Shown piece by piece: positions 15,122 to 53,474 of a stretch of 64,000 nucleotides of DNA. The position numbers and the translations under genes were made by a program. Every line of letters begins with the position of its first letter. The first letter of the stretch is position 1. The stretch lies in the NCBI RefSeq assembly GCF_022045235.1, contig NW_027266330.1:51646001-51710000 (forward strand), written 5' to 3'. The notes under the pieces were generated by a model. It was not told the DNA's origin. It made no database searches and saw only the letters and a list, made by a program, of their open reading frames with translations. The DNA comes from Haliotis cracherodii. Its lineage: Eukaryota.

Positions 15122-15244
15122 ATGAACTGGGTCCGTCTTTCCGTTTATGCTGCGATCTTGGTGAACTTTGGGCTGTTTTTGACTTTTGTGACACTAACAG
15201 CATGGGAAGTGCAGCCCGACCAGGCACCCAGGATGACCCAAGAG
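15122..15244 (+). CDS. TNF-like ligand gene 1, coding exon 1 (signal anchor/TM, 41 aa)
   Basis: MNWVRLSVYAAILVNFGLFLTFVTLTAW hydrophobic segment; GAG|GTTAGT donor, phase 0. Confidence 0.7.
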
Positions 15245-16151
15245 GTTAGTAAAACCATGCACATTCAAGGATATGTCGACACAATGCTTCACACAGCCAA
15301 GGCCAACTTGTATCCGCAACATCTCTTTACCTTCTAGTCTCGGTCTTGGACCCGTGAAGATCCGGGGTAGAAAAGGTCTTCAGCAACCCATGCTTGCCGT
15401 AAATGGCGACTATGCTTGTCTTAAAAGGCGACTAACGGATCGGATGATCAGGCTCGCTGACTTGGTTGATGGATGTCATCATATCCCAGTTGTGTGGATC
15501 GATGCTCGTGATGTCAATCAATCGATTGTCTGGTCCAGACTCGATTATTGCCGAGTGCGGCGTTAAACAATAAGCAAATAAAACAAACAAAAAGTTTTGC
15601 CCTTGATACATACATAAACACACACCGTGACAGATAATAGATATATCTTTTCTTTATTTTGTGAAATACCATATATATCGCATTTGGTCTGAAATTTGTT
15701 TTGTGACTAGTGAGCTAATGTTTTTTCATCCTCTGCTTTCATTACTGATCGTTATTATCCAAAATCCACTGTGATATTGACGGAAAGTATATCAGTCATG
15801 GTGAAATTATATTTATTGCATCCCCTCGCAAATACTTCTGTTCTTTTTGTGTGTTATGTATTTGTCTGAAATGTCAGAATATATAAATTTCAATGCACAT
15901 ACCATATATATCGCATTTGGTCTGAAATTTGTTTTGTGACTAGTGAGCTAATGTTTTTTCATCCTCTGCTTTCATTACTGATCGTTATTATCCAAAATCC
16001 ACTGTGATATTGACGGAAAGTATATCAGATAAAACATGATTTTTAACCACAGTGAAAAGTCCAGTTAGTGTTTTCGGATAAATATAGTAGTTTAACTCCA
16101 TGTATGCATACTGATACTGATGCGACGTTAAATTTTAACACACTCGCTCAC

Positions 16152-16860
16152 TCATATCATACCCCATATCAACTCGAGACCCCAATATTGTCCAGAAAGC
16201 TTGAGGGTTGATGTGGGGGTCGAGGGTTGATATGAGGTAGCAATGCTCATGGCAAGGAGGTAACTCTTCCTGGACTTATTCTCAAAGCTAGTTTACCACA
16301 CCTCGGAGGGTCGGTTCAAAATCCCATCTCCAAACTTAAAGCAGAAAGCGGGAAAATCAGCGTACATCACAAACTAGGGTAAAGGTTGCGTGCGTATTTC
16401 ATAAGCTGCTATTTTTAGAATTTTCTTCGAAATTGAGTTTCAATGAAGTCAACAGTTATTCTTAAAACTATCAATACAGCCGAATACGCGGTTGTAAATA
16501 GGTTTATTCTCTTCTGCAATCAGTTGTTATAATTTCCAGTGTGTTTTAGATTTAATTTATAAGGGACAATATCTAAAAAAATAATTAAATCCGACCCCAC
16601 CTTAATTCTATTAGCGGTATGCAGTTTTTACATAACAACGCAGTTACTTCCCTTCGGACATGCTTCGCCAAGCTCCTTCCCAGCGCGTGACACCTTCGTT
16701 ACACTCTCAGTAACATAGTATAGAGAGCTCCGGGAACGGGCTATCGCTGTGAGGAGCTTGAAACTTCGCAAACACGATTGAAATTACCACAGGCTCAGAT
16801 TATGAGGTATGATATGATAATAACCTTTTCATCATATACCATAACATCAAAGCTGTACTG
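16152..16860. mobile_element. Putative non-autonomous element with hairpin-rich ends (Crypton-like appearance)
   Basis: catatcataccccata at the left end vs tatgaggtatgatatg at the right; internal hairpin atatcaactcgagacccc..ggggtcgagggttgatat. Confidence 0.4.
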
Positions 16861-17207
16861 GACCCCATCTCCTCCTCCCCCACCCCCGACCCCTAGGCTT
16901 TAGATTCCAATCTTAAAACATCTCTAAATTCCGAAAGAACACGTTCACTTTGTTTGGAAGATAATGTCAGCGGAAAAGTATCCGAGCAGACGACGCAATA
17001 TCGATCGCCTATTCAAAATGCATTAGCAAGCCACATCAGCCCGGCCGGGGGTGTAATACGGGTCTGGGTTTTACACCCCATGTGATATTACCGTCTCCAT
17101 GTTGGCTCTATCGCACATGCAAAATACCTCATATTATTGATGGGTTGAAGCCCAGCTTCATGTCTATACATAGACAGGCAAATCTACGGAAGATCCTTTC
17201 TGCCATG

Positions 17208-17565
17208 AACCGCCTCCGTGGTCTAGTGGTAGATCGTCCGCCCGGAGAGCGGAAGGTCCGGGGTTCGATCCCAGGCCGCGTCATACCAAAAGACGTTAAA
17301 AGATGGTACTTGTTGTTACCCTGTCTGGCGCTCGGCATTGAGGGGCTAAAACAAGGACTGGTCGGCTCGGAGTCAGTACACTGTGTCTGAGTGGGGTATT
17401 CATGTTAAACTGCGGCATGGTATCTCAGTGAGCTAGCACTATAAATCGGCATAAGTCCGGACTAGTACAAACAGCCACACAAACACACACACGTACATGC
17501 ACGTCACTATATAAGTGCAATAATCTTGGACGCGACGTTAAACCCCATTTCACCTCACCTCACCT
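17208..17565 (+). mobile_element. SINE family A, in intron 1 of TNF gene 1
   Basis: Full length; TSD cctttctgccatg. Confidence 0.9.
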
Positions 17566-17686
17566 TTCTGCCATGGTGAAATTATATTTATTGCATCCCC
17601 TCGCAAATTCTTCTGTTCTTTTTGTGTGTTATGTATTTGTCTGAAATGTCAGAATATATAAATTTCAATGCACATCTCACTTACAG

Positions 17687-17717
17687 GAGACGGTGTTCGA
17701 AACGCTGAGGCAGCAAG
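17687..17717 (+). CDS. TNF-like gene 1, 31-nt micro-exon 2 (ETVFETLRQQ)
   Basis: ctcacttacAG acceptor, AAG|GTAAAA donor. Supplies the phase 0 to 1 shift needed to join exon 1 to exon 3. Confidence 0.55.
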
Positions 17718-18228
17718 GTAAAATAATGTTCCATTCAAATACAATAGTTAATGCAAATACCTCACTTAACCGTGGTTTTCATATGTACATGTATTGACCC
17801 CCAGTTCATTTCATTTGTTATGGATCGCCTCCGTGGTCTAGTGGAAGAGCGTCCGCCCGGAGAGCGGAAGTTTTGGGGTTCCCACCCTGGCCGCGTCATA
17901 CCAAAAGACGTTGTTACCCTGTCTGACGTTGTTACGCTGTCTTGCGCTCGGCATTAAGGCTAAAACAAGGACTTAAATTGTCGGCGCGGAGTCAGTATAC
18001 TGATTTACCTTCATATGCCCACTCGTCTGAAGCGCCGCAATTCACTGTGCAGAGTTGCCTCCCTTGGGCATGCCAAAAACCTGCATCGTGGCTTCGAGTC
18101 CAGTTTCGCCCCGATAATGTTTCTAGTTTGTCAGTACCATGCTCGTGCTCGACACACCGTGATATAACCGGAACAATGTTGAAAGCTTTGTTAAACCTGT
18201 CTCACTCACTCATGTGGTATATTTACAG

Positions 18229-18342
18229 TTGATCAGTCCAGATCTGAGGACACAAGTGTTTCATACCAGAGAGATGTTGACAAGTGCAATGCTAGTCGAC
18301 CAGCCTTACATCAAGCCTTCACAATACAGGACACGTCTCAAG
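18229..18342 (+). CDS. TNF-like gene 1, exon 3 (stalk plus strand A-like RPALHQ)
   Basis: atttacAG acceptor and AAG|GTAGGT donor; open frame VDQSRSEDTSVSYQRDVDKCNASRPALHQAFTIQDTSQ; phase 1-1. Confidence 0.7.
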
Positions 18343-18659
18343 GTAGGTTGCACGTGTTCAATTCAATTAAACATTTTATATCTGTAAGTGTAGTAGTTGT
18401 TTGTTTGTTTGTTGTTTAACTCCGCACTCGATGACATGGATCGATGACATGCACCAACCGAGTCTGACCACCCGCTCCTGTTAGTCGCCTCTTCCGACAA
18501 GCAGAGTCGCCTTTTACGGCAAGCATGGGTTGCTGAAGACCTATTCTATCCCGGATCTCCACGGGCCTGTAAGTGTGGTAGCAAAGATCACACAACATTA
18601 AGACAATAATAACAGGAAATATTTCTGTACACTGTATTTGTTTTTGTTTTTTTCTTAAG

Positions 18660-19039
18660 GCAGCAGCATTGTCAAGTTGGACGTCGGTGCTGCCACAGAA
18701 GAGATGACTGCTGCCTTGCTCCAAGGTTTCCAATTAGATGATGGCTCCATCAATGTGCTTGTATCCGGCTACTACGTCATCCTCATGGACGTGACCTACT
18801 TCTTCCGTGGCCACATCGATGGGTCACAAGTCAAGGTGTACGTGAGATGCGTCCAGTCCGACCCTGCGAAAGATCTTGTACGGATCTCACAATTATGCAG
18901 GATAGGGAGATATTGTTCCCTTACATTTCAGAGCATTTCGTATTTGTCTCTGACTGCAAAACTCCACTGTGAAGCCAACCATGCCAGTGATATAGTCACC
19001 GCCATTGCGAATACTCACATCAGCCTTGCATTCTTTTGA
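18660..19039 (+). CDS. TNF-like gene 1, last exon (divergent TNF homology domain); spliced protein 215 aa
   Basis: Long polypyrimidine tract plus AG at 18658-59. GFQLDDGSINVLVSGYYVILMDVTY fits the TNF pattern G-x-x-L-x-D-G-x-L-x-V-x3-G-x-Y; stop at 19037-39. Confidence 0.7.
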
Positions 19040-21435
19040 ACAGGCGATGTCCTTTTTTGGCATTTCCTACCACATGTATTTGTCCATATTTACCTGGGCC
19101 AGTTTAGATCACAATTGCATGACTAATACATTCAGGTTAAACGTTTACATTGGTTTAAATTGGTACTCAAGGTTGTTTTTTTTTAAATACAAAAAGATAA
19201 ATACCTACAATATTGGATTTAGAAAAGATCAATCGCGAATCTACTTTTAGTCATTGACATATAGTTCCAGCTTTCAAAGGGGCGGTCGGGTAGCCTAGTG
19301 GTTAAAGCGTTCGCTCGTCACGCCGAAGACTCGGGTTCGATTCCCGACATGGGTACATTGTGTGAAGCCCATTGCTGGTGTCCCCGCCGTGACATTGCTC
19401 GAATGTTGCTAAAAGCGGCGTAAAACCATAGTTACTCGCTCCAGCTTTCAAAGCCTTTATGCACATGTGTTCTGAGCTTATAAAAATATATATTATTGAA
19501 AACAAACATGCAACTTTTGGTTTAATAATTTCATAGGAACGTTAAGTATACATTTTCCTTCCATTGAGTATCATACCTGATTGTGTGGTACGTGTACATA
19601 CGTGAATGTCCAGCTTTAAACCATATTGTATTTTTACTGTTTGTATCGTTCGTTTCTTATTTGATCATACATGGAATATCGCCTTGGAGCACACGCAACT
19701 CAATGGACTGGACCGGTCAGTTTTAACGTTGTCATGACAGCATCAGTCGACTTGCGGGGAAGGTTCCAAGCCATGATCTCGAGCGTTTGGGCGATCTTTT
19801 CACCAAAAGTAGATAGAAACATGTTTTGGACCTTTTGGAATCTCGTAGTTGTGACAAACCACAGTTGAAACTGTTAACTATTTTGTACCATTTCCGTTTC
19901 AAAACGAATAATTTTAAAACTAATTTTTAAAGTCATAAGTCATAAAGTTAAGGCTGCTTAAACTACCGTACCCGCATCCACGAGGGTTTTTCTTATGATG
20001 AGGATTCGGATAAAGGATGATGTTTCGGAAGCAAAAATGTCGCCGTTCAAAGCCCCGTTACAAAACAGGTCATCTGCCTGACCAAACGGAAGTGTGACTT
20101 GTTCACGGGGTTTCTGCCACACTTGAGATATTGAAATTCGGTGATGGATATGGAGGTTATAGCTCTTATACCATTGTCAGTAAACTCGCCGTTCTGGGTT
20201 AACACAGAAGGAATTACGACCGTACAAAGTCCCGTTGTGGATATTCATACGGGCTCATTCCCACGACGACGCCCTCTATAATCCTTCTATTGTGACGAGA
20301 CTACTTGTACAAACTGACCGCCTCCGTGGTCTAGTGGTAGAGCGTCTGCCCGGGGAGCGGAAGGTCCGGGGTTCCATCCCCGCCCGCGTCATACCAAAAG
20401 ACGTTAAAAGATGGTACTTGTTGTTACCCTGTCTGGCGCTCGGCATAAGGGGTTAAAGCAAGGACTGGTCGGCTCGGGAGTCAGTATGCTGTGTCTGAGT
20501 GGGGCATTCACGCTAAACTGCGGCCTGGTATCTCAGTGGGCTAGCACTATAAATCGGCATCAGTCCGGACTAGTACAAGCAGCCACACACACGTGCATGC
20601 ACGTCGCTATATAAGTGCAATAATCTTGGACGCGACGTTAAACCCCATTTCACCTCACCTCACCTCACCTGCGCAAACTCACAAGGAGGCTTGGTGACAG
20701 GGGGCATATCACACTTTTAGCTATTTTCAAACATTGTACAATAGGTCGTCGATGATATTTATTTTGTTTGTTGTTTAACGCCGCACTCAGCAATATTCCA
20801 GCTTTTTTACAGAGGTATCTTAATAATCGGGACTGGACCAGATAATCCAGTGATTGGTTGCTGCATATCTCGACTCTTCCCGGATCGTCACTGGTCTTGT
20901 AGTAGCATCAGTAGTTGTAATAGAAGTAGTATTAACAGTAAGTAGTATTAGTACTAATATGAGTAGGAGTAGTAGTAGTAGTACAAGTAGTAGTACTGGA
21001 TGTAGGTGGTGATCAAGCTCGCTGACTTGGTTGATGCATGGCGTTGTTTGCCTGGATCGATGCTCATGATATCAATCACTGGATTGTCTGGTCCTGACTC
21101 GATTATGTTGGTTGGTTTGTTGTTTAACGCCGCACTCAGCAATATTCCAGCTATATGACGGCGATCTGTAAATAATCGAGTCTGGACCAGACAATCCAGT
21201 GATTAATATCATGAACATCAATCCACGCAATTGGGATCGATGACATGCATCAACCAAGTCGGCCAGCCTGACCACCCGATCCCGTTAGTCGCCTTTTACG
21301 ACAAGCATAGTCACCTTTTACGGCAAGCATGGGTTGCTGAAGACCTATTCTCCCCCGGAATCTTCACGGGCACAAACCGCCGTCATACGCATGTAGCTGG
21401 AGTAGTGCGGCGTTAACAAACAAACAAACAAACTA

Positions 21436-25178: not shown

Positions 25179-25622
25179 ATGGCGGTCCTGACCGTGCACA
25201 CTGAACCTCGCAAGGCAAAATACAAGCTGTGTGATGATGCATCTGGTATGTTGGAAAGCAGTAAAGTGGAACACCGCCCACATCAAAGGGACGCTACTGC
25301 AGGACGCTGCGACGGAGACTCACGCAGGGCGAAGCTGTACTTCGGTGTAGCTGTACTCTTAGTGTCACTGGGGGTCAATATCATAGGCGCAGTGTACCTC
25401 TGGAGAGCTGTTGGACGCGAAAGGAATGACGGTCCGCGAGCTGAGGCTCTTGTGTCGGTGTTGCACGATGAGGGCACGGTTTGCACGGACTGCGGGTCAC
25501 TTGGTGTTCAGCCGGGCACTTACAAGTCTGACTTGCACGGGCTTTACGTGCGTCACGTGACGGGATCATCCTATTTGTGTTGTTTACAAAATGCTGAAGG
25601 ATTATGGAGACTCGCCTCGATA
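25179..25622 (+). CDS. TNF-superfamily ligand gene 2, exon 1 (cytoplasmic tail, TM, CxxC..CC stalk; 148 aa)
   Basis: aaaATGg start; TM LYFGVAVLLVSLGVNIIGAVYLW; ATA|GTGAGT donor, phase 0. Confidence 0.9.
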
Positions 25623-26119
25623 GTGAGTAATTACACCCAAACATAACACACAAAAATATATTGAAATATGACATTGAGACTCTATGATTTACACTTCATA
25701 TATTAAATCCCCGTGATGATCCGGGCTAGAATAAGTCTTCAGCAAACCATGCTGGCCGTAAAAGGCGACTATGCTTGTCGTAAGAGGCGAGTAACGGGAT
25801 CGGGTGGTCAGGCTCGCTGACTTGGTTGATATATGTCATCGATGATGTCAATCACTGGATTGTCTGATCCAGACTCCATTATTTACAGACCACCGTCATA
25901 TAGCTGGAATATTGCTGAGTGCTCACTAGTTTACCCAACTAGATTATCCTACCGATAGCATAATCCAGTGTGAATAGGTTATCACGATCTGATAAATTCA
26001 CAATTGCGGTACCCAAGCGAAGTCAGGAACTACTTTCGATAAGCACCATGCCCCGAAGCAGTGTCAACTCGCTCATCAGAATACTGCGCAATAAGTTTAT
26101 ACAGATGTTTCTCGATGTC

Positions 26120-26651
26120 CATCTTCCCGAGGCAAGTGACTTAACTGACTATAAAAAGTCAAGTGTCCACCCTTGCCGAACTAGGCTGGTATTATGGAGT
26201 TACGTTTTGGCTGGACTAACTAGTCTATGCATAGGCCAATCACAATCGCGCAACGAAAGCGAAATTCAGTTCGTAAACTGTCATGCAGATTTCGGGCGAT
26301 AGCAGGATTTGAAAACCATTCGTTGTCAACAGATATTTTGCAATTTTGTTCATGCTTTTAATCAATGCGCTCACGTGATTTGATGCACTTCGCGATGTAA
26401 GACCCGTTTTATCACAATATAGATCTTGATTATCGATCAGAGCGTCTTGACTGGGCGCCGCCATTTTTTTGAAGCAAAAGCAAGTGATACGAGAGAGGGA
26501 ATCTGATTGGTCCATAGGAGAGGCATAGAAGGGACATAACTCGTAATAGCCACTGGTGGCGCTACGATCGAGTCCAGGAATTCCATCCTAGTTCGGCAAG
26601 GGTGGAAACTGGACTTTTGAAGTCAGTTAACTCTCTTGCCTCGGGAAGATG
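26120..26651. mobile_element. Non-autonomous DNA transposon, ~70-bp TIR, CA..TG ends, 9-bp TSD; in intron 1 of TNF gene 2
   Basis: TIR catcttcccgaggcaag... / ...cttgcctcgggaagatg; ctcgatgtc duplicated at 26111-26119 and 26652-26660. A related end fragment sits at ~1831-1886. Confidence 0.9.
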
Positions 26652-27507
26652 CTCGATGTCTAGTTGGCCCTATAAACGCGGCTTCTAATGATTTGGTACA
26701 ATAACATAAATTGCGCAGTTTCTTCATATGTGATTTCAATAGTTACATCTGCCAGTGAAATTACCTCTAAGTGCATGATACAGCTAGAATTACCCTCGTG
26801 CTCTCCATACATAGGCTCGCACAATACAATAGTTCTTCTCTATAATTGATATCTATCATACAGAAACACATTCGGCTTATAAGGTTTCTATCTGTTAGTC
26901 TGGATTGACATTTGGTAATGGAGCTCAAATTTCCGCTTGTAAAACAGATAAACGTCTTCTTGAGTCGTATAACGGTACGCATGTAAACGAGTGAGTGAGT
27001 GAGTTGGGTTTATAACGCCGCTTTTAACAGTATTCCAGTTATATCACGGCGTGTCAGCTTAATGTGGGAGGAAAGCCCGAAGTGATGCAGGTCTCAGACG
27101 TTTACCACTTCGGTGAAACCCACGAGCACGGGTATGGTGCTGAGAAACCTAGAAACATAATCGGGGCGAACCGGTATTCGAACCCACAATCATAGGTTTC
27201 TGGCATGCCCAAGGGACGCAACTCTGCACAGCGAATCGCGGCGCCTTAGACGACTGGGCAACCCGTGCCCCCACATGTAAACGAAGATAGATACCTGATA
27301 ACTGTTATTTTTAACAATCACGATAACAACTAGGGGTATCTTGATGTCATACATTTTTTAATAAGGTTAAGATAATGTACTTGTAGTTAAACTAGATTAA
27401 ACAAGCACGGAAACACAGAATGTATTTCCAGAATCACAAATCCGTGATCAATGTTACTACTTTGATTCCACAAATTGCAACCATATACAGAATTTGTATC
27501 TGTTTAG

Positions 27508-27625
27508 TTCACGAACAGGTTCTACAAACACACACAGTCAGGCACAATCCCAAGCGAAGCACCAGGAACTGACGAAGGCACTGGAGCTCACCTCTACGTA
27601 GACAGCGATGCCCTGAAGTCGGATT
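27508..27625 (+). CDS. TNF ligand gene 2, exon 2 (FTNRFYK...GAHLYVDSDALKSD)
   Basis: tgtttAG acceptor, T|GTACGT donor; contains TNF strand A motif AHL; 118 nt, phase 0-1. Confidence 0.88.
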
Positions 27626-28089
27626 GTACGTACGGTTGACATTATGTAGAAATGGATGTGAATTAGGACAGAAACTACTGCTCAATTGTGAGTGAGTACG
27701 TATGGTTATACGTTGCTTCTAGCAATTAACCAACATATCGGGGGACCAAATTGGGCTTCACACACTGTACTCATGTGGGAAATTAAACCCCGGTCTTCGC
27801 CGTGAGGAGCGAAGGCTTTAACCACCAGACCACCTCACCGTCACTGTTCAATTTCGAAATTTTGAACGTAGGCTGTTGCCCGTAAATTTGATTCCTTACT
27901 AAAACGGAGTTTGGAACGCCCACGGAACAGATTTGAGATATAAATCTTTTGAAATACATCTTTTCCTTCGAAGTAACGAGTAATAAACTGAATAAAATTC
28001 CAATTTAGATTAGATATTGCTGGCGGACCAATCAGAATGCTGGATTATTAAATGTTATGGCAGAATTCAGATTTCCTTTCATAAGGGCT

Positions 28090-28255
28090 AGGGCGGTCGG
28101 GTAGCCTATTGGTTAAAGCGTTCGCTCGTCACGCTGAAGACCCGGGTTCGATTCCCGACATGGGTACAATGTGTGAAGCCCATTTCTGGTGTCCCCCGCC
28201 GTGATATTGCTGGAATATTGCTAAAAACGGCGTAAAACCATACTCACTCACTCAT
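28090..28255 (+). mobile_element. Short tRNA(Asp-like)-derived SINE family B (~165 bp, (CACT)n tail), representative copy
   Basis: Head TAGCCTAGTGG..GTCACGCCGAAGACCCGGGTTCGATTCCC in the consensus; TSD ttcataagggcta. Other copies at ~2510-2672, 3261-3427, 7957-8119, 8934-9060, 9217-9365, 19279-19440, 27688-27842, 30868-31034, 32200-32340, 37397-37555, 44765-44912. Confidence 0.9.
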
Positions 28256-28687
28256 TCATAAGGGCTAAATAACAGGGACCATATGAAAGTTCCCAAAACG
28301 TAAATCGCAGACGAGGTATATATGAATTTAGTAGAACAGGGTATCAATTCTTCAGATTGAATACGGGGGCACGGGTGGCCCAGTCGTCTAAGGAGCCGCG
28401 ATTCGCTGTGCAGTGTTGCGTCCCTTGGGCACGCCAGAAACCTATGATTGTGGGTTCGAATCCCGGTTCGCCCCGATTATGTTTCTAGGTTTGTCAGCAC
28501 CATACTACCCGTGCTCGTGGGTTTCACCGAAGTGGTAAACGTCTGGGACCTGCATCACTTCGGGCTTTCCTCCCACATTAAGCTGACACGCCGTGATATA
28601 ACTGGAATACTGTTAAAAGTGGCGTTAAACCCAACTCACACACACACTAATATTATATTCCATTTCCGTCACCCATTTCATTCGCAG

Positions 28688-29085
28688 CGCCGTCCTTACA
28701 ATGGAATCAGGACTACGGCTACGGCTCAGCTTACAAAGGGATCGACATCAAAAGTGATGGAGAGAATCTTCACATAACAAAACCTGGCCTATATCACGTC
28801 TACTCCTTCTTCACGTTCAAAACTCACCAACCACGTCAACATCCTGACAACGTCTTACATACCATCAGAAGAAGCAACGCCCATCTGCCGAATTTGGGGC
28901 GCACTGTTCTTCTCATGGCCAAGAAGACCTTACCGGAAGCCAGCGAGAGATTCGTCACGAGTTATCTGTCCGCTACAGTCAGACTGAGGCAGGATGATCA
29001 CGTGTCTGTCACTGTCAGCAACATGTCACATGTCTACCGATATCCGCCATCAAATTTCTTTGGCTTGTACTACGTAGGGGAGTGA
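28688..29085 (+). CDS. TNF ligand gene 2, exon 3 (TNF homology domain); spliced protein 319 aa
   Basis: cattcgcAG acceptor; LQW...LHITKPGLYHVYS...TSYLSATVRLRQDDHVSV...NFFGLY, canonical THD motifs. Confidence 0.92.
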
Positions 29086-32780: not shown

Positions 32781-32842
<62 letters not shown>

Positions 32843-36738: not shown

Positions 36739-38036
36739 GTAAGTTTTTAAAGCCCTCATTCATGACTGTCTTCAGAGAAATATTTGTATTTGTATTATAT
36801 ATTTTAGATAAAGGGATGATAATTCATCAAAAAATAATTTTGGAATATGCACGACGCCTGATAAGTGTTTTCACCAAAGTGACACCCATAAGATCATGGT
36901 TTTATCACTGAACCTGGATCATGGTGTCTCCGTCGCGATATGGCTCGAATGTTTTGTTTGTTTGTTTGTTTGTTTGCTGTTTAACGCCGCACTCAGCAAT
37001 ATTCCAGTTATATGACGGCTGTCTGTAAAATAAGCGAGTCTTGACCAGACAATCCAGTGATTGACATCATGAGCAACGATCCACGCAATTTAGATCGATG
37101 ACATGCATCAACCAAGTCAGCGAGCCTGACCACCCGGCTCGAATGTTACTCAAACGGCGTGTAACATACTGATTCAATGTCTTAGCCAGAAAAGGCTTGG
37201 TTTGTTGTTTTACGCCGCACTCAGCAATATTCCAGCTATACGACGGCAGTCTGTAAATAATCGAGTCTGGACAAGACAATCCAGTGATTGATATCATGAG
37301 CATCGATGACATGTTTCAACCAAGTTAGTCGCCTCTTACGACAAGCATAATCGCCTTTTATTGCAAGAAGGGGTTGTTGAAGACCTATTCTACCCTAGGT
37401 AGCCTAGTGGTTAAAGCGTTTGCTCGTCACGCCAAAGACCCGGGTTCGATTCCCGACGTGGGTACAATGTGTGAAGCCCATTTCTGGTGTCTCCAGCCGT
37501 GATATTGCTGGAATATTGCTAAAAGCGGCGTAAAACCATACTCACTCACTCAGTCACTATTGATTCACAAACCTTGTGTAAAAACAGGAATGAGTTTAAA
37601 AGATCTTTAAACAGTATTTCGGGATGCCAGATAAATTAGGGAAGACAGCTGAAAGTACACTGGTCGTAGAAGCCTGCCACTTTGATACGTGAAACCCACG
37701 AGCATTAGTCAAACAAAAGATAACCTTGCCAATGTCATGAGATTCGGAACCATGGATCCTTCCTCTGAGGGACGGGGGCACGGGAGACCCAGTCGTCTAC
37801 GGCAGAAACGTATGATCGTGGGTTCGAATCCCGGTTCGGCCCGATTATGTTTCTAGGTTTGTCAGCACTATACCCGTGCTCGTGGGTTTCACCGAAGTGG
37901 TAAACGTCTGAGACCTGCATCACTTCGGGCATTCCTCCCAGATTAAGCTGATACGCCGCGATATAACTGGAATACTGTTAAAAGCGGCGTTAAACCCAAC
38001 TCACTTACTCAATCACTCCTCTGAGGGACACATATA

Positions 38037-39545: not shown

Positions 39546-40849
39546 TACATATTCGCGGGGCCTTTGAACAGTGTAAACCGAAACCAAGTACTCCATTTAC
39601 ACAACTCGTGCTTAGATTTCAGTACTCTGATGAAATCATGGTGTAGTTTTAGTGTTTCAGCTTAATACAGGAAATTAGCTCAGCTTATAACAATGTAATG
39701 TAATGACACATGTAAGGCTTATAACAGCTATGAGTAACTTTTTATTTATAGACCCGTTAAGATCTGGAGTAGAATAACCCATGCTTGCCGTAAAGGGCGA
39801 CTATGTTTGTCGTAAGAGGCGGCTAGCGGGATCGGGTGGTCAGGCTCGCTGACTTGATTGATGCATGTCATCGTATCCCAGTTGCGAAGATCGATGCTCA
39901 TGATGTCAATTACTGGATTGTCAGGTCCAGACACGATTATTTACAGATCACCGGCATATAGCAGGAATATTGCTGAGTGCGGCGTTAAACAAACGACAAA
40001 CAAACAAAGTCATGTTGCATAAACGTTTGTGCTTGATAAGTAGAATAGCAGACAGTGTGGTTGCAAACGCGTTACTGACGAAGACGTCACTACTCAAATG
40101 AGTCAGTAAGAGACAGTTAACCCCGACACATCAGTGACATCGTTCTGCATAAGAAATGCAACCCAGCCCTCGCGTCGTACCAAAAGACGTTAAAAGATGG
40201 TACTTGTTGTTACCCTGTCTGGCGCTCGGCATTAAGGGGCTAAAACAAGGACTGGTGGGCTCGGAGTCAGTATGTGTCTGAGTGGGATATTCATGTTAAA
40301 CTGCGGCATGGTATCTCAGTGAGCTAGCACTATAAATCGGCATTAGTCCGGACTAGTACAAGCCCCCCCCCCCCCCCCAACACACACACACACACACACA
40401 CAAACACACACACGTACATGCACGTCGCTATATAAGTGCAATAATCTTGGACGCGACGTTAAACACCATCTCACCTCACCTCACCTAAGGCGCCGCGATT
40501 CGCTGTGCAGAGTTGCGTCCCTTGGGCACGCCAGAAACCTATGATTGGGTTCCAATCCCGGTTCGTCCCGATTATGTTTCTAGGTTTGTCAGCACCATAC
40601 CCGTGCTCGTAAACGTCTGAGACCTGCATCACTTCGGACTTTCCTCCCACATTTAGCTGACACGCCGTGATATAACTGGAATACTGTTAAAAGCGGCGTT
40701 AAACCCAACTCACTCACTCACTCACTCCTCTCACACTATTTCATTGTGGACTGATGACAAGTGGGTTGCCAGACACCTATGAGATTATGTGCATGCCATT
40801 TCCCAATATTTCATCAGTCAGTGTTGTATCAGATTGCCTTTCTATTCAG

Positions 40850-40961
40850 TTCACTGCTCAATCCAACACCTCGTCCAGAGCTCAACAAACGGATGCCGAT
40901 TATGTCTTCAGTCGAAAGACCGGAGCCCATCTGTATCTTAACCGCGATGCATCGAAACGAA
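40850..40961 (+). CDS. TNF ligand gene 3, exon 2 (FTAQSN...TGAHLYLNRDASKR)
   Basis: tttctattcAG acceptor and A|GTAAGT donor; AHLY motif; 112 nt, phase 0-1. Confidence 0.9.
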
Positions 40962-41127
40962 GTAAGTAGACATTTCAATAAAACAATTGGCTAATAAAAC
41001 ACTCACATACACTGTCTTTTCAAGTAAACGTGACGGCACGTTTAGGATCCCAGGATAGAGTAAGTAACCTATGCACCATGATTGTCGTACGCGCCGACAG
41101 GCAGTCACATTGTTACCGCCTCTGTGT

Positions 41128-41365
41128 CTTGCCGTAAAAGGTGACTATGCTTGTCGTAAAAGGCGGCTATGCTTGTCGTAAAAGGCGGCTATGCTTGTCG
41201 TAAAAGGCGACTATGCTTGCCGTTAAAGGCGGCTATGCTTGTCGTAAAAGGCGGCTATGCTTGTCGTAAAAGGCGGCTATGCTTGTCGTAAAAGGCGGCT
41301 ATGCTTGTCGTAAAAGGCGGCTATGCTTGCCGTAAAAGGCGACTATGCTTGTCGTAAAAGGCGAC
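41128..41365 (+). repeat. 22-bp minisatellite (~11 copies) inside a family-D SINE
   Basis: Unit atgcttgtcgtaaaaggcggct, period 22. Confidence 0.95.
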
Positions 41366-41732
41366 GAACAGGATCGGGTGTTCAGGCTCGCTGACTTGGT
41401 TGATGCGTGTTATCGTATCCCAATTGCGTGGATCGATGCTCATAACGTCAATCACTGGACTGTCTGGTCCAGATTCGATTATTTTCAGACCGCCGTCATA
41501 TAGCTTGAATATTGCTGAGTGCGGCGTTAAACAACAAACAAACAAACAAACAAACAAACAACCGTTTCTGTGGTCAAGTGGATAGAGCGTCTGCCCGTAG
41601 AAGGCACCTGTTGTTACCCTGCCTGGTGCTTGGATCTATACACACACTTGGTTTGTATGTTTACACAATAAGACACATATGTATCAGTTAATTACACGCG
41701 GTATGTTTTAAAATTGTGAACATTCTTTTCAG

Positions 41733-42127
41733 GTGGATCGCTAGAATGGACTGATGAATCCAACGATTCCGCCTACGTAAGTAAAAGCGTCATCTGCGAC
41801 AACAAGACCCTCCAAATCAAACGGCGCGGCCTCTATCACATCTACTCCTGCCTCACACTCAAAACCCACGACTGGCACCGTTACCCTGACAAAACCGTTC
41901 ATATTATGACGAGGAGCAACGCAAACCTGCCCACACTCGGCAAGACTACCATTATCATGGCCAAGAAGACCTTACCGGAAGCCAGCGAGAGGTTCGGCAC
42001 GAGTTATCTGTCCGCTACAGTCAGACTGAGGCAGGGCGATCACGTGTCTGTAGCTATCAGCAACATGTCATATGTCTATCAACATCCGCCTTCTAATTTC
42101 TTTGGCTTGTACTACGTAGGGGACTGA
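41733..42127 (+). CDS. TNF ligand gene 3, exon 3 (TNF homology domain); spliced protein 295 aa
   Basis: ttcttttcAG acceptor; LEW...LQIKRRGLYHIYS...LRQGDHVSV...NFFGLY. Confidence 0.92.
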
Positions 42128-43200: not shown

Positions 43201-43312
43201 ATCATCAACCACTATGGATATCTCGGTTGCCTTATTGCTTGTGTCACAACAGCCAACAACTTGTCATATCTACACTTCCAGCGTACCTACATGGATCCTC
43301 TCCTGTTGAATC

Positions 43313-44320
43313 CATTGGCTTTGTCATTATATTGTTATTTTTGTACATAAATCCTATCTATCTCAATGGCTTCGTCATAATATTGCTATCTTTGTACATA
43401 AATCCTATCTATCTAAATGGCTTCGTCATTATATTAACTTTGTACATAAATTCCATCTCATTGGCTTTGTCATTATATTGTTATTTTTGTACATAAATCC
43501 TATCTATCTCAATGGCTTCGTCATAATATTGCTATCTTTGTACATAAATCCTATCTATCTAAATGACTTCGTCATTATATTAACTTTGTACATAAATCCA
43601 ATCTCATTGGCTTTGTCATTATATTGTTATTTTTGTACATAAATCCTATCTATCTCAATGGCTTCGTCATAATATTGCTATCTTTGTACATAAATCCTAT
43701 CTATCTAAATGGCTTCGTCATTATATTAACTTTGTACATAAATTCCATCTCATTGACTCTGTCATTATATTGTTATTTTGTACATAAATCCTATCTATCT
43801 CAATGGCTTCGTCATAATATTGCTATCTTTGTACATAAATCCTATCTATCTAAATGGCTTCGTCATTATATTAACTTTGTACATAAATTCCATCTCATTG
43901 GCTTTGTCATTATATTGTTATTTTTGTACATAAATCCTATCTATCTCAATGGCTTCGTCATAATATTGCTATCTTTGTACATAAATCCTGTCTATCTAAA
44001 TGACTTCGTCATTATATTAACTTTGTACATAAATCCAATCTCATTGGCTTTGTCATTATATTGTTATTTTTGTACATAAATCCTATCTATCTCAATGGCT
44101 TCGTCATAATATTGCTATCTTTGTACATAAATCCTATCTATCTAAATGGCTTCGTCATTATATTAACTTTGTACATAAATTCAATCTCAATGGCTTTGTC
44201 ATTATATTGTTATTTTTGTACATAAATCCTATCTATCTCAATGGCTTCGTCATTATATTAACTTTGTACATAAATCCTATCTCATTGGCTTTGTCATTAT
44301 ATTGTTATTTTTGTACATTA
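43313..44320. repeat. Higher-order minisatellite: three 47-51-bp monomers form a 146-bp unit, ~7 units
   Basis: ttgg(a)ct..gtcattatattg recurs at 43315, 43461, 43607, 43753, 43898 and 44044. Confidence 0.93.
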
Positions 44321-47073: not shown

Positions 47074-47085
47074 GAAAACGAAACT
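47074..47085 (+). promoter_or_regulatory. Candidate ISRE/IRF site ~350 bp upstream of the TNF gene 4 ATG
   Basis: GAAAACGAAACT matches GAAANNGAAACT; motif match only. Confidence 0.35.
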
Positions 47086-47427: not shown

Positions 47428-47784
47428 ATGTCTGCAGCATACAGCATCATAGACGAAGAAGACGGCGTCGTTAAAGAGAAGCACCGTTTGCCATGTGAAC
47501 AGACAACTGCCTGTCTCATAGTGACTCTTTCAATTTTTGTGAATCTGACATTAGGAGTCACTATATTTTTTAGCATTAATCTGGGATATGGTACAGAATT
47601 AGCATCCAGGACATCCCCATCTCGACATATGACTGACAGGTACTCCGTATGCACAGAGTGTCATTACTTTGGACACGCAGAGAAACATCCACGACACGGG
47701 AGACTTGTCCAGAGAGTGGAGACTAACGATGGACAGATTTGCTGCCTTCACCAAGCTGAGAGCCTATGGAGGCTTCTGAACCTG
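47428..47784 (+). CDS. TNF-superfamily ligand gene 4, exon 1 (TM plus CxxC..CC stalk; 119 aa)
   Basis: TM ACLIVTLSIFVNLTLGVTIFFSI; CTG|GTAGGT donor, phase 0. Confidence 0.9.
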
Positions 47785-48344
47785 GTAGGTGCCTTTGGTA
47801 TAAATATAATATGTGACATATCAGTAAAGGCGCTGTCGTGTCACTGCAATGAAGCATTTTTGTTTTTGGTTTGCTGTTTCATGCTGCACTCCAACAATAT
47901 TCTAGCTATATGACGATGGTCTGTAAATAATCAAGTCTGGACCAGACAATCCAGTGATTGACATCATGAACATCGATCCACGCAATGGGTTGGTTTGTTG
48001 TTTAACGACGCACTCAGCAGTATTCCAGCTATTTGACGGCGGTCTGTAAATAATCGAGTCTGGACCACCCAATCCAGTGATTGACATCAGGAGCATTGAT
48101 CCACACAATTGGGATCGATGACATGCATCAACCAAGTCAGCGAGCCTGACCACCCGATCCCGTTAGTCGCCTCTTACGACAAGCATAGTCGCCTTTTACA
48201 GCAAGCATGGGTTGCAATTAGGATACGATGACACGCATATACCAAGTCTGACCACCAAGTGTGATAAATATTAATCACGCGTATGGAATATGTATGTATC
48301 AATATTCAATAAAACAAGACCAACTTCTGAAACGATATTTCCAG

Positions 48345-48438
48345 ATACATATGAAGTCCTTGATGCAGCAACCGACGTCCCCCGGGCAAGTGTCGTTCCC
48401 GCCGCCGTCGGCGCACCTGTATCTTGACACACTACAAG
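48345..48438 (+). CDS. TNF ligand gene 4, exon 2 (IHMKS...PSAHLYLDTLQ)
   Basis: atttccAG acceptor and AAG|GTAATG donor; PSAHL motif; 94 nt, phase 0-1. Confidence 0.88.
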
Positions 48439-49990
48439 GTAATGCATGAATAGCTTCAGTCCGAACAAGCCACATTCAGCTATTTGTAATATGCAATACA
48501 TTGGGGGCGTGGGTTAACCCTGCGTTCAATTAAGAAATGAGTTTCATATGAATTTTCATACTGGAGTATGAACTCTTTAACCGTGCAAGTTAAAGTCATG
48601 TCCATTCCGGAGCTTGCCAACCAACACCATATAAAATTAATTTCTTAAACAAATTCGTACTTTGAAGTTAAAGCGATGCACATTTTACGGTGACGCTCAT
48701 TTTGGGCGATTTACGTTACCGGATACATTAGAATGCAGCTACCCTATTACGGGAATATTCGCCACACTTTCGCAAGACAAAGTAGTTCCAATTCCATAAA
48801 TAAAAAAGACACATTATTGTTAATAGACGAGAGTTACTTTTAGTAATTTTACATCAGAAATAACTTCCTTTTTTCACCCGAGCTTCACCTCAATGAAATT
48901 ACCAAAAATGTTGACGTTGATCTCACAACCGGGGATCGACTTTTTTGCGGGTTTTTTCGAAGGGACATTCGCTGATTCAGGGATCGTACATACATACATG
49001 TGACATGTAAGTAATCAGAAACATTTTGATAATCTACGTATTGTTATTTGTTTTTATGGTTTTCATTGTAACGAAGGGCAATAGTCAGAAATGCCGATAA
49101 ATACCGTTGTCGTTTTGCGTGATATTGCGTGATATTGCGTCAGTCATGGGATCACGAAGGACAGAAACTTTGACAATTTCTGTAGAGTTTACCAAATCAT
49201 TGTTATGAATCTATTCGTAATTTCCTAATTTTTATTGCGATACTCTTCCGATGCATATTCTATAAAATATTGAGCCTTTGTATGCAACGACTAGAAGAAT
49301 ATATCTCTCAAATCAGGGACTCGTGAAGATTCCGGGGTAGAATAGGTCTTCAGCAACCCATTCTTGCCGTAAAAGGTGACTATGCTTGTCGTAAAAAGGC
49401 GACTAACGGGATCGGGTGGTCAGGCTCGCTGACTTGGTTGATACATGTCATCGATCCGAATTGCGTGGGTCGATGCTCATGCTGTCAATCACTGGATTAT
49501 CTGGTCCAGATTCGATTATTTACAGACCGCCGTCATATGGCTGGAATATTGCTGAGTGCGGCGTTAAACAACAAACAAACAAACAAACAAACAGGTGAAA
49601 GTGATACACAGTGTAAAATCTGAATTTTACTTTCTTTACTTTTCAAACAAGTGCAGTTTTTCGAGCACAGCGTTCGTTTTCACGCCTAAGTTATTTCGCT
49701 TATGTTCATATAGACAGTTTATAGACCTATTCGTGACTAAGACCACATATCATTTGACCCTGAGTAAATATCCTATATTTTGATTGAGTTTCAAAATATA
49801 CACTAAATAACGCCGTAATGGTGATTTAGTAAAGTGTCAAAAATGGCGAGATTTCGAAATTCCAAATTTCAGAGGTCATTTTCAGTAATATTGCTTTGCC
49901 GGAAATGACAGTGGATGATATCACGGAACAGGGAACTTTTCACGGAATTGGAAACTGCAGTGTGTTTGTCTGCGTGATGTAATATATATA

Positions 49991-51479
49991 CTCAACAACA
50001 AAAGTTCCTGTGACACCAATGTTTTAGTGTATTTTTCAAACAAGTAAAGTTTTCAATATTGTATTACATGTATGGAATCAAGTCACAAAAACGCAACTGC
50101 TACAGAAAAGCATGCATTCCATGCAAAAGTTGCCTTTTATGCAAGCCCCATGCATTTCACTACCCAAGAATGGGTATATAAACTTGTTCATTAACGGGAT
50201 TCCATATGCATTGTTTAGCATCGTGCTGACAACAACCACTCAGAAGAACAACAAAATTACGAAATTATTCAACATTACGAAATGCCACGCCTGTCCCCAA
50301 ATGGGCGTCTGCGAGCCATTGGTATGCTTGAAGCAGGATCGAGTAACCGTGATGTTGCAAGACAATTAAAGTATAAAGAAACACCATTTGGTGTTTATGG
50401 CAACATTGGCAACAGACGAATGCAGTCAGAGACCATCCTCGGAGTGGCAGGCCATGCGTAACCAATAATCGACAAGACAAATGGATTCGAACAACACACC
50501 TACGAAATCGATTCCAGCCAGCAACAGTGACTGCAAGAAGCATCCCTGGCCTTCGACGAATATCTTCACAAACCGTACGTCGTCGCCTCAGATGTGCAGG
50601 GACTGTCGCCAGAAGACCCGCCAGACGTCCCATTTTGACAGGAAACCACCGTCAGTGGTACAGACAGCGTCTACGCTGGACGGCCATGCAGTGGGGACAA
50701 GTTCTATTCACTGACCAGTCTCGTTTTCACCTCAGCCACGGCGATGGACGGATTGGAGTGTACCGACGTCGAGGTGAACGTTACGTCAATCAGTGTGTCA
50801 TGGAAGAAGATCGGTTCGTGAGCGGCAGCGTTATGGTATGGGGTAGGATAACAGCAAGACAGAGGACCCGTTTAATAGTGGTAGAGGGAAATTTCAATGG
50901 ACAGCGCTACCGCGACGAGATCATCGGCCCTGTTGTTCTACCGTTTTTGCGCCGTCATGACCCAGGCATTACCTTTTAACATGACAACGCCCGGCCTTAT
51001 ATTGCTCGACTTGTTCAGGATTCTCTTTAACAAAACAACGTGAATGTAATCCCCTGGCCGGCTCGCTCCCCTGATCTCTCACCAATCGAGCACATGTGGG
51101 ATGAGATGGATCGGCGTCTTCGACGTCAACCACGTGTTCAGCAGACAATCCAGGAACATCGAAACATGCTCCAGCAGATATAGACAGATATCCCACAGGA
51201 CTTTGTGCGAAGCCTGGTCCATTCCAAGAGACGATGATGTGTTGCTTGCATCGCAACCAGAGGTGGACACACACGCTATTGATTTGTAAATGGACATTTT
51301 GGCATGTTCATGTTTTTGTATGAAATCACGCATTTTCTGAAGTCAGTATGGCAAAGTAAACCATTTGAACACTTACAGGAGTCGTTTATCTGTTGGAAAC
51401 CGAAAATGTTTCAGATTTGGTAAAAAATATAACTTAGCATTAAATCTTATTCAATGTCACAGGAACTTTTGTTGTTCAT
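49991..51479 (+). mobile_element. Second full-length Tc1 element (different family), transposase 50282-51282 with stops and frameshifts, in intron 2 of TNF gene 4
   Basis: TIR core caacaacaaaagttcctgtgaca / tgtcacaggaacttttgttgtt, TA flanks. FTDQSRF, HDNARP, WPARSPDLSPIEHMW, GGHTRY. Confidence 0.9.
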
Positions 51480-51854
51480 TATATATAAATTATAAACGGG
51501 CCATGTGTCCAGCAAATAAACTTATCACATCACCTTAAACTTCAAATACGCTTTGGGCTTTGTTTCAATGTTCAAATACCTCGATTGACTGTGACAGTGT
51601 AAAGAGAAAGGCCGTATGTGGACAAACCATAGGTTTTGTAGTAGTTTCGCTTCACATTGAAGTGTTTTTCAGTTGTATCACGACTTGACGGCTTGAAGTG
51701 GGAGTGAAGCCCGACTTATTGCACGTCCTGCCGGTTTACACTTAGGCGAAACCCACGAACACGGGTATGGTCCTGACATAGTGAATTTTGGAACTCAAAC
51801 CTTCGAGCAAAGATCCTTAGGGACGCTACTGTCCACAGCGAAATTACATCGTTC

Positions 51855-51887
51855 TTTGACGACAGCTGATCTTTGGACTTTTGTGTT

Positions 51888-51950
<63 letters not shown>

Positions 51951-51997
51951 ACTATCTATCTATTTGACGACAGCTCATCTTTGGACTTTTGTATTTG

Positions 51998-52075
<78 letters not shown>

Positions 52076-52116
52076 ATCTGTATCTTTGACGACAGCTCAT
52101 CTTTGGACTTTTGTAT

Positions 52117-52179
<63 letters not shown>

Positions 52180-52226
52180 GTTTGACGACAGCTCATCTTT
52201 GGACTTTTGTATTTTATCTATCTCCC

Positions 52227-52260
<34 letters not shown>

Positions 52261-52351
52261 ACGACAGTTCATCTATGGACTTTTGTATTCTATCTATCTG
52301 TCTGTCTGTCTCTTTGTATGTTTGACTACAGTTCATCATGGACTTTTGTAT

Positions 52352-52399
<48 letters not shown>

Positions 52400-52446
52400 A
52401 CTATCTATCTATTTGACGACAGCTCATCTTTGGACTTTTGTATTTG

Positions 52447-52480
<34 letters not shown>

Positions 52481-52585
52481 TTGACGACAGCTCATCTTTG
52501 GACTTTTGTATTTGATCTATCTATCTATCTATCTATCTATCTATATCTGTATCTTTGACGACAGCTCATCTTTGGACTTTTGTAT

Positions 52586-52656
<71 letters not shown>

Positions 52657-52749
52657 GTTTGACGACAGCTCATCTTTGGACTTTTGTATTTTATCTATCT
52701 CCCTGTCTGTCTGTCTGTTTGACGACAGTTCATCTTTGGACTTTTGTAT

Positions 52750-52792
<43 letters not shown>

Positions 52793-52960
52793 GTTTGACG
52801 ACAGCTCATCTTTGGACTTTTGTATTTTATCTATCTCCCTGTCTGTCTGTCTGTCTGTTTGACGACAGTTCATCTTTGGACTTTTGTATTCTATCTATCT
52901 GTCTGTCTGTCTGTTTGTATGTTTGACGACAGGTCATCATGGACTTTTGTATTTTATCTA

Positions 52961-53000
<40 letters not shown>
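51855..53000. repeat. Compound minisatellite: ~33-bp anchor (tttgacgacagctcatctttggacttttgtatt) plus variable (TATC)/(TGTC)n, 14 units
   Basis: Counted anchors from ~51858 to ~52925. Confidence 0.95.
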
Positions 53001-53001
<1 letters not shown>

Positions 53002-53076
53002 GTAAATATAAACAGCAAAGCCCTTTAACTTATTAGGAAGATAACGGATCATAATCAGAAGCCTCTACCCTTTCAG

Positions 53077-53474
53077 AATCTGACTACAAATGGAGCGATG
53101 AGTTCGGGTATGGGGCTGCCCACGTGACAGGGGGAATCAAGATGGCGTCGGGAAGATTACAAATATCACATCCTGGCTACTATAACATCTACTCCTTCAT
53201 CACGCTGAAGACGAGATCGGAACTAACCAGCAACCTGAGAGTGAAACATTCAATAAGAAGAATCAGCAAGCATCCAGAACCACATACTGATATTGTGTTA
53301 CAAAGAAGTGCTTCCATGTCCAGAATTAGTGAAACATTCATCAACAGTTATCTAGATGGTGTGATTAAACTCGATGCAAAAGACGAAATATATGTTGACG
53401 TTTCAAATGTAAGTTCTATTTATAAGTATGCACCTTCCAATGTATTTGGTTTACATCTTGTAAGATATATATGA
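53077..53474 (+). CDS. TNF ligand gene 4, exon 3 (TNF homology domain); spliced protein 282 aa
   Basis: ccctttcAG acceptor; YKW...GRLQISHPGYYNIYS...SYLDGVIKLDAKDEIYVDVS...NVFGL. Confidence 0.92.

Follow-up and report, generated by a model that had tools for sequence, protein, structure and literature searches.

A tandem cluster of three TNF ligand genes and one TNF-like gene in the abalone Haliotis cracherodii

Analysis of a 64,000-nucleotide (nt) stretch of DNA from the black abalone, Haliotis cracherodii (NCBI RefSeq assembly GCF_022045235.1, contig NW_027266330.1, positions 51,646,001 to 51,710,000 of the forward strand), called the window here and numbered from its first letter, identified four tandem genes between positions 15122 and 53474, which we number 1 to 4. 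Judged by their sequences, genes 2-4 are clear TNF ligands with a conventional type II layout, the fold having been modelled for gene 2. Gene 1 is TNF-like by fold, profile and intron position, several independent hints that together make a weaker case than that for genes 2-4. The reading that we favour, at a probability of about 0.72, is that these genes belong to a larger abalone TNF cluster produced by tandem duplication before the sampled species split, in which genes 2-4 would serve as conventional ligands and gene 1 as an atypical one.

Gene models and layout of the locus

Gene models were built by combining a six-frame motif scan with the open reading frame list and direct reading of the window. 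All four genes lie on the + strand with start-to-start distances of 10,057, 11,179 and 11,070 nt, in line with the spacing of about 10-11 kb proposed in a first-pass annotation of this DNA. That annotation had also described GT-AG splicing into uninterrupted type II membrane proteins and a common three-exon layout of genes 2-4, both of which were borne out. GT-AG borders were present at 9/9 introns, the four spliced frames contained no internal stops, and each predicted protein (215, 319, 295 and 282 amino acids (aa) for genes 1-4) carried a single hydrophobic segment near its N-terminus (best 19-aa hydropathy 1.95-2.26). Genes 2-4 have three exons each, interrupted by a phase 0 and then a phase 1 intron, the second falling 7-11 codons past the strand-A His, and gene 1 has four exons (intron phases 0, 1 and 1). 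The features are listed below.

15122-19039, + strand: gene 1 overall, 4 exons, 215 aa
15122..15244, + strand: gene 1 exon 1, start codon, 7-aa tail and hydrophobic anchor (aa 8-26) with conserved membrane Asn
17687..17717, + strand: gene 1 exon 2, 31 nt, short stalk, phase 0 in and phase 1 out
18229..18342, + strand: gene 1 exon 3, remaining part of the stalk, then probable strand A carrying His79; a phase-1 intron follows 10 codons past this His
18660..19039, + strand: gene 1 exon 4, degenerate TNF-like jelly-roll domain and stop (Pfam 15.1 bits, profile and fold searches)
25179-29085, + strand: gene 2 overall, 3 exons, 319 aa
25179..25622, + strand: gene 2 exon 1, 55-aa tail, membrane helix and CxxC...CC stalk module
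27508..27625, + strand: gene 2 exon 2, linker and strand A
28688..29085, + strand: gene 2 exon 3, TNF homology domain and stop (Pfam 58.8 bits; FasL structure E 6.8e-06)
36358-42127, + strand: gene 3 overall, 3 exons, 295 aa
36358..36738, + strand: gene 3 exon 1, 33-aa tail, membrane helix and cysteine stalk
40850..40961, + strand: gene 3 exon 2, linker and strand A
41733..42127, + strand: gene 3 exon 3, TNF homology domain and stop (Pfam 53.5 bits)
47428-53474, + strand: gene 4 overall, 3 exons, 282 aa
47428..47784, + strand: gene 4 exon 1, 29-aa tail, membrane helix and cysteine stalk
48345..48438, + strand: gene 4 exon 2, linker and strand A
53077..53474, + strand: gene 4 exon 3, TNF homology domain and stop (Pfam 42.6 bits)

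All four models were letter-for-letter equal to RefSeq predicted proteins of Haliotis cracherodii (XP_071085561.1 for gene 2, XP_071084754.1 for gene 3 and XP_071086144.1 for gene 4), two of which (genes 2 and 4) are named "TNFSF6-like" and the other two "uncharacterized". The genes were therefore already in the automated annotation, and of the first-pass description of a cluster hidden among repeats only the second part stands, with repeats recurring in the window making up ~41% of 15122-53474. Indirect support for the predicted splice junctions comes from the RefSeq models and from orthologues in three other Haliotis species, with which they agree. An in-frame alternative acceptor at 53059 would lengthen the product of gene 4 exon 3 by 6 aa; the database protein uses 53077. 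When the window was searched by tblastn with 14 TNF proteins for other TNF genes or fragments, only the 13 exons and a duplicated end of gene 4 were recovered, the remaining matches being short with E values of at least 0.05. No furin-type R-x-K/R-R site was found in the four proteins, so shedding by a furin-type route is not indicated, and AU-rich nonamers were absent near the four genes. The window contains no TNF receptor sequence.

Sequence and fold of genes 2-4

Relative to the Pfam PF00229 cut-off of 23 bits, the last exons of genes 2, 3 and 4 scored 58.8, 53.5 and 42.6 bits. The first-pass annotation had assigned a TNF domain to all four genes and proposed checking the spliced proteins with this family; 3/4 pass, and gene 1, at 15.1 bits, does not. 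Each of genes 2-4 encodes one strong hydrophobic segment behind a tail of 29-55 aa, a position that suggests type II topology, and alignments showed the hallmark residues of the family (strand A His, Trp, GxY..YS, SY/FL and FG) in all three. The domain fold was predicted for gene 2 alone among them, using a model built on 70 sequences, which comprised a membrane helix at 48-79, a cysteine module of strands and a helix at 100-159 with moderate confidence, and a jelly roll with block means of the predicted local distance difference test (pLDDT) of 88-98 across aa 171-319. This model aligned with mouse TNF over 139 residues (Z 18.0, rmsd 1.8), compared with Z 12.4 for the best C1q row. FasL (E 6.8e-06) and TL1A were the best solved-structure sequence relatives both of gene 2 and of the mollusc profile.

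The stalk encoded by exon 1 of genes 2-4 contains a CxxC...CC module with neither a Pfam match nor a usable Atlas match. The same pattern was present in 81/151 related proteins screened and is therefore common to this class of ligands rather than a local oddity. Its four cysteines are invariant in the alignment because the rows were picked by that motif. According to the model of gene 2, the module is probably a small disulfide-bonded unit of strands and a helix.

Genes 2-4 in one Haliotis clade and a wider TNF cluster

A first tree was calculated from 95 domains, comprising 76 motif-bearing matches of 230-430 aa, 16 other rows and three window genes, with motif-less matches excluded. Genes 2-4 were placed in a 20-row clade with support of 95/89, in which all named members were Haliotis. 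The same clade was recovered at 95/93 in a second tree of 59 rows, from which 40 rows had been dropped for speed or long branches and to which four gene 1 rows had been added. Among outgroup rows looked up, 18/20 were molluscs, and the only vetigastropod identified in the sample outside Haliotis was one Gigantopelta protein. The first-pass proposal of a locally duplicated array thus holds for genes 2-4; gene 1 fell outside the clade in the free tree, and its inclusion was not rejected (p-AU 0.115 in the approximately unbiased (AU) test).

Orthologues of genes 2 and 3 were found in H. rufescens, H. rubra and H. asinina, and those of gene 1 in three other Haliotis species, H. rubra and H. asinina among them. 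The separate lines of genes 2 and 3 persist in four species, which means that the duplications are older than those splits and the genes are not recent. The fast divergence suggested at first pass may be reflected in protein identities of 31-53% between paralogues, or 23-53% with all four genes compared, set beside 89-95% to the H. rufescens orthologues.

Seven TNF-like proteins were found on a scaffold of 63,398,646 nt in H. cracherodii, eight on a scaffold of 83,060,790 nt in H. asinina and nine on one scaffold in H. rufescens, with gene 1 on a scaffold of the same size as that of genes 2-3 in both H. rufescens and H. asinina. Co-location was judged by scaffold size alone, so that the synteny check suggested at first pass returned relatives on scaffolds of matching size in each species, and adjacency beyond the window is inferred. 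Six of the nine H. rufescens proteins were gene-2-like, versus two in H. cracherodii, and five of these were 93-99% identical to each other; some copies, 97-99% identical, could be assembly duplicates. The locus therefore seems to be part of a larger Haliotis TNF cluster in which copy number is still changing between close species.

A homogenised tract in genes 2 and 3

Divergence within the array is uneven, with genes 2 and 3 homogenised at the 3' end. The two genes are 53% identical overall, and over the following tract, synonymous sites included, they are 92% identical at the nucleotide level.

28913..29081, + strand: tract in gene 2, running from where strand E ends through strand H; 13 of its 169 nt differ from gene 3
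41955..42123, + strand: tract copy in gene 3, at a fixed offset from the gene 2 coordinates

Just upstream of the tract the genes differ at 46/127 nt, and the identity ends at the stop codon. At shared residues the same codon was used in 41/46 cases within the last 56 codons versus 37/97 before them, and four-fold sites were alike in 19/22 versus 16/50 cases; no comparable step in codon identity was seen for gene pairs 2/4 or 3/4. Since the 56-codon cut had been picked after seeing the data, a free tract scan was also run, in which the observed score was reached in 0/200 permutations for genes 2/3, compared with 2/200 for genes 2/4 (owing to a short 8/8 stretch at strand C) and 42/200 for genes 3/4. 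The pattern recurs in the other three species, where the gene 2 and gene 3 proteins are 84-89% identical in the tract and 37-47% identical in the first part of the domain. The tract spans strands F, G and H together with the E-F and G-H loops.

These comparisons make gene conversion the probable origin of the tract, with strong nucleotide constraint as the alternative. Two observations weigh against conversion: protein sites at which paralogues group by species are scarce (a single site in each of 5/6 species pairs), and the region is also better conserved than the rest relative to other paralogues (73-80%).

Gene 1 resembles TNF ligands by profile, modelled fold and intron position

With PF00229, gene 1 scored 15.1 bits for the last exon and 13.6 bits for the full protein, both below 23, and this was the sole Pfam family matched in 4/4 gene 1 orthologues (best E 5.5e-05). 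A profile of mollusc TNF homology domains (THDs) gave gene 1 8-16 bits and aligned its strands B to G in the expected succession, whereas the highest-scoring of 1004 shuffled or reversed controls reached 4.8. TNF clusters were nearest to gene 1 in the Atlas at 0.92-0.95, with 211/256 features in common at 0.95. Using the low-confidence predicted model of gene 1, Foldseek returned TNF ligands in 30/30 rows among the matches listed, and a wide fold search with VIA-align matched TRAIL at Z 10.9 (rmsd 2.6, 101 residues aligned). The phase-1 intron of gene 1, 10 codons past the strand-A His, is in the same register as that of gene 3, and the membrane Asn of its anchor is common to 52/70 aligned ligands. 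This anchor is a 19-aa hydrophobic segment behind 7 residues, which might instead be a cleaved signal peptide.

Relatives of gene 1 were found in three other Haliotis species at 56-89% identity. A word-based and hence insensitive search for relatives of near length accepted 4/9 candidates, all Haliotis, and a search of the same kind for longer relatives found none among 231 candidates; the deep profile search covered genes 2-4. The H. rubra orthologue is annotated as a protein of 145 aa without a membrane anchor, either a truncated prediction from a short contig or a soluble form.

Several results weigh against a place for gene 1 in the TNF family beside genes 2-4. Its predicted model has a mean pLDDT of 49.6 and was built on four sequences, and a phage fibre domain, at Z 10.1, drew level with the top TNF rows of the wide fold search, C1q following at Z 9.2. 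BLASTP between gene 1 and genes 2-4 was not significant, nor was a profile-profile comparison (E 0.15), and the gene 1 profile scored highest on bivalve TNFs from another clade. We accordingly describe gene 1 as TNF-like rather than as a canonical ligand.

Altered residues and possible assembly of gene 1

The gene 1 protein has a 7-residue tail, a stalk half as long as that of the others, no cysteine module and short loops. In a distant alignment, the conserved Trp, the aromatic residues of strands C, F and H and the Gly of the FG motif were each found in 0/4 gene 1 orthologues, compared with 54/55 (Trp), 53/55 (strand C Tyr), 49/55 (strand F Tyr/Phe), 50/55 (strand H Phe/Tyr) and 54/55 (Gly) of the other rows; the FFG motif is missing from gene 1 in all four abalones. 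Four domain cysteines (C153, C169, C175 and C193) are invariant in the four species, and C169 and C175 flank the E-F turn, in a register taken from the low-confidence model. The three lost aromatic positions are presumably those of Tyr59, Tyr119 and Tyr151 in human TNF.

These tyrosines of human TNF stabilise the trimer (PMC5529296). A disulfide between strands E and F defines the EF-disulfide group of BAFF, APRIL and EDA (PMC6224509), and a ligand that forms dimers, mouse 4-1BBL, combines a polar residue on strand F with a cysteine in the E-F loop (bioRxiv 10.1101/444554). An unusual assembly of the gene 1 product is plausible from its residues. On the other side, the strand-F aromatic is missing from RANKL and CD40L too (bioRxiv 10.1101/444554), and these are placed in the conventional trimeric group (PMC6224509), so the losses in gene 1 are no proof of an odd assembly.

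Origin of gene 1

The favoured reading treats gene 1 as a member of the abalone cluster. A strong contender, which we regard as possible rather than probable, is that genes 2-4 alone are a local expansion and gene 1 belongs to an older, separate TNF lineage that came to be adjacent through ancient linkage or relocation. In the free 59-row tree gene 1 fell outside the gene 2-4 clade, and outside a 39-row clade (99/99) containing genes 2-4. The highest scores of its profile went to TNFs from Potamilus (15.4 bits) and Magallana (11.7 bits), which lie in another clade and in the alignment have a Gln and a Cys, where strand E ends, in common with gene 1. Gene 1 also lacks the cysteine stalk. Yet its branch, at 4.4 substitutions/site, makes long-branch misplacement likely, and forcing gene 1 into the gene 2-4 clade was not rejected by the AU test. 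The matching intron position and the scaffold of the same size as that of genes 2-3 in H. rufescens and H. asinina also count against a separate lineage.

Proposed mechanism and receptor use

Under the favoured reading, tandem duplication before the split of the sampled Haliotis species would have built the cluster, with copy number still shifting. Type II TNF ligands trimerise and cluster their receptors through outer loops (PMC6224509), and genes 2-4 may likewise form cell-surface trimers that bring together the TNF receptors of adjacent cells, for example haemocytes or gill epithelium, leading to immune or cell-death signalling. Their outer loops have diverged: the A-A', A'-B' and C-D loops share 4/11, 3/11 and 3/9 residues between genes 2 and 3, and 1/11, 4/11 and 0/9 between genes 2 and 4. 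Because of these differences the receptor preference of genes 2-4 probably differs, at least in part, which fits the first-pass suggestion of different receptors. Between genes 2 and 3, whose products may co-assemble, conversion would have preserved the likeness of the domain's 3' third, in which the trimer-facing strands F and H lie. Gene 1, whose stalk is short, whose tail is nearly absent and whose subunit interface is remodelled, would most likely act as an atypical ligand or modulator of looser or non-canonical assembly, by analogy with GITRL, OX40L and mouse 4-1BBL.

Other points count against this scheme. The homogenised tract covers the E-F and G-H loops, so genes 2 and 3 would tend to be alike at part of the receptor surface. 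A kappa-B pattern had no match in the 1.5 kb preceding each of the four start codons.

It is also possible, if rather doubtful, that the array is redundant, with genes 2-4 sharing one or more receptors, the copies adding dose or sites of expression, and conversion keeping them alike. The homogenised tract of genes 2 and 3 (8/8 residues identical in the E-F loop and 9/12 in the G-H loop) fits such redundancy, as do the additional, closely similar gene 2 copies of H. rufescens, which among five of them are 93-99% identical, and the reported lack of correlation between ligand and receptor numbers across invertebrates (bioRxiv 10.1101/2024.07.27.603686). It accords poorly with the different A-A', A'-B' and C-D loops of gene 2 relative to genes 3 and 4, and with the retention of both gene 2 and gene 3 orthologue lines in four species. 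We consider it unlikely that the locus works as a combinatorial system, in which an interface kept by conversion would let genes 2 and 3 form mixed trimers with different receptor faces, and gene 1, a conserved protein of TNF fold, would be unable to make the standard trimer and would serve instead as a dimeric ligand, a decoy or a dominant-negative subunit, of a class of invertebrate TNF that domain searches miss.

It seems very improbable to us that gene 1 encodes no TNF homologue but a jelly-roll protein of C1q or another type, for instance a membrane lectin. Its sub-cut-off TNF score and the loss of most hallmark residues would suit such a protein, as would the fold matches to C1q and phage fibre domains (Z 9.2-10.1) and the C1q clusters at 0.82-0.85 in the Atlas. 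Nevertheless, Pfam C1q matched 0/4 gene 1 orthologues at E up to 5, TNF came first in the Atlas, Foldseek and VIA-align lists, and the significant match to the mollusc THD profile, the type II layout, the intron register and the position in a TNF cluster all speak against it. Least credible of all is that one or more of the genes is a decaying copy or an assembly artefact, for which a repeat-rich region, the hallmark losses of gene 1 and the predicted nature of the models could be cited, since the reading frames are intact, four species conserve the gene 1 domain (56-89%) with many invariant columns including its four cysteines, and the four genes, at 23-53% identity, are too different for haplotype duplicates.

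Repeats and mobile elements around the genes

Just upstream of the gene 1 start codon, a strong donor at 15075 and an acceptor-like site at 15113 lie 39 nt apart. Intron 1 of gene 1 contains a perfect 130-nt duplication (15666-16028) and a 104-nt duplication (15797-15900 and 17572-17675, 99%), the second copy of which ends 11 nt before the exon 2 acceptor. Gene 2 exon 2 is flanked by repeat copies in opposite orientation at 26990-27295 and 28340-28648 (93% over 311 nt), whose pairing could loop out this 118-nt exon; its skipping would shift the frame. Two Tc1/mariner-like elements that have terminal inverted repeats, and whose transposase frames are broken, occupy ~38040-39545 in gene 3 intron 1 and 49994-51476 in gene 4 intron 2, the latter alone giving a weak Pfam transposase match. 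Also in gene 4, a tandem array at 51889-53001 (unit ~60-68 bp) ends ~75 nt before the last acceptor, and a 108-bp tandem duplication at 53419-53638 (97% match) repeats the final 56 nt of the gene 4 coding sequence together with its stop codon and the beginning of the 3' untranslated region, leaving the protein unaffected.

Elsewhere in the window, a broken DDE_Tnp_4 transposase, which we take to be Harbinger-type, lies at 58262-60282, its 3' piece scoring 55.6 bits and its 5' piece giving a weak helix-turn-helix match. Three long frames at 10676-13240 (435, 137 and 228 aa) look like one broken mobile-element gene, with a weak DUF6589 match below cut-off. Five tRNA-like matches of 30-38 bits, one of which ARAGORN calls tRNA-Asp, were detected at 1116-1187, 2521-2579, 3359-3415, 19284-19355 and 37393-37464; because they overlap repeated DNA, they are probably the heads of a tRNA-derived short repeat. 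Further tandem arrays are located at 43309-44303 (146 bp unit), 41128-41363 (22 bp) and 60662-61056 (37 bp).

Comparison with known systems

Tandem expansion of TNF ligands has been described in molluscs. Mercenaria mercenaria is reported to have 65-67 TNF genes on one chromosome, about half of them in tandem (PMC8905726), and Crassostrea gigas 23, including tandem duplicates (cited in PMC8905726 and PMC7674686); up to 27 TNF paralogues are given for one mollusc (bioRxiv 10.1101/2024.07.27.603686), and tandem arrays are known from vertebrates as well (PMC7674686). The abalone locus resembles those of Mercenaria and C. gigas in its tandem, lineage-specific ligands with one membrane helix and one TNF domain (PMC8905726), and differs in belonging to a gastropod, in the smaller number of genes seen, in one member below the domain cut-off and in partial conversion between two members. 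In tunicates, a separate lineage, TNFSF arrays show frequent independent tandem duplications with fast change of gene number (PMC12843592), which suggests that the tandem pattern is general and not special to the abalone locus.

Among conventional vertebrate ligands, FasL (TNFSF6) and TL1A (TNFSF15) are the best solved-structure matches of gene 2 and share its fold, and the label "TNFSF6-like" expresses similarity. Structural alignments of gene 2 with conventional vertebrate ligands give 21-30% identity, and the abalone proteins differ in the CxxC...CC stalk, which has no Pfam match. Mouse 4-1BBL and mouse GITRL are dimers, grouped with OX40L as divergent ligands (bioRxiv 10.1101/444554, PMC6224509). 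Like GITRL, OX40L and 4-1BBL, gene 1 has a short domain of low similarity, with an apparent polar strand-F residue and an E-F loop cysteine as in mouse 4-1BBL. A sequence relationship to GITRL was considered and set aside: mouse GITRL chains were the only TNF-family sequence matches of gene 1 in the PDB and were not significant (E 0.8-1.4). GITRL also ranked low in the gene 1 fold search (Z 7.2-8.3), and the likeness is an analogy that is probably convergent.

Several molluscan TNF ligands, namely AbTNF-alpha and Ab-Fas ligand of the disk abalone, PmTNF of the pearl oyster and CgTNF-1/-2 of the oyster, are induced by bacteria or lipopolysaccharide (PMC12367993, PMC11869874). They are described as type II ligands, the layout predicted for genes 2-4. 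One TNFSF10-like transcript was reduced after Vibrio challenge (PMC11250055). None of these responses is tied to the four genes of the window. A literature search in which subscription journals, the main outlet for mollusc TNF work, were thinly covered found nothing on this abalone cluster, on gene 1 or on conversion among invertebrate TNFs.

The four genes offer a candidate cytokine set for an endangered abalone reduced by bacterial disease. Since gene 1 lies under the Pfam cut-off, domain-based TNF counts would miss it, which illustrates that such counts in invertebrates can pass over conserved members, and gene 1 also provides a test case for non-trimeric or decoy TNF ligands outside vertebrates. 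The tract shared by genes 2 and 3 is a testable instance of partial concerted evolution inside a cytokine domain. Compared with the systems above, the array is a new example of the already described tandem mollusc TNF type, to which gene 1 and the conversion tract are modest additions.

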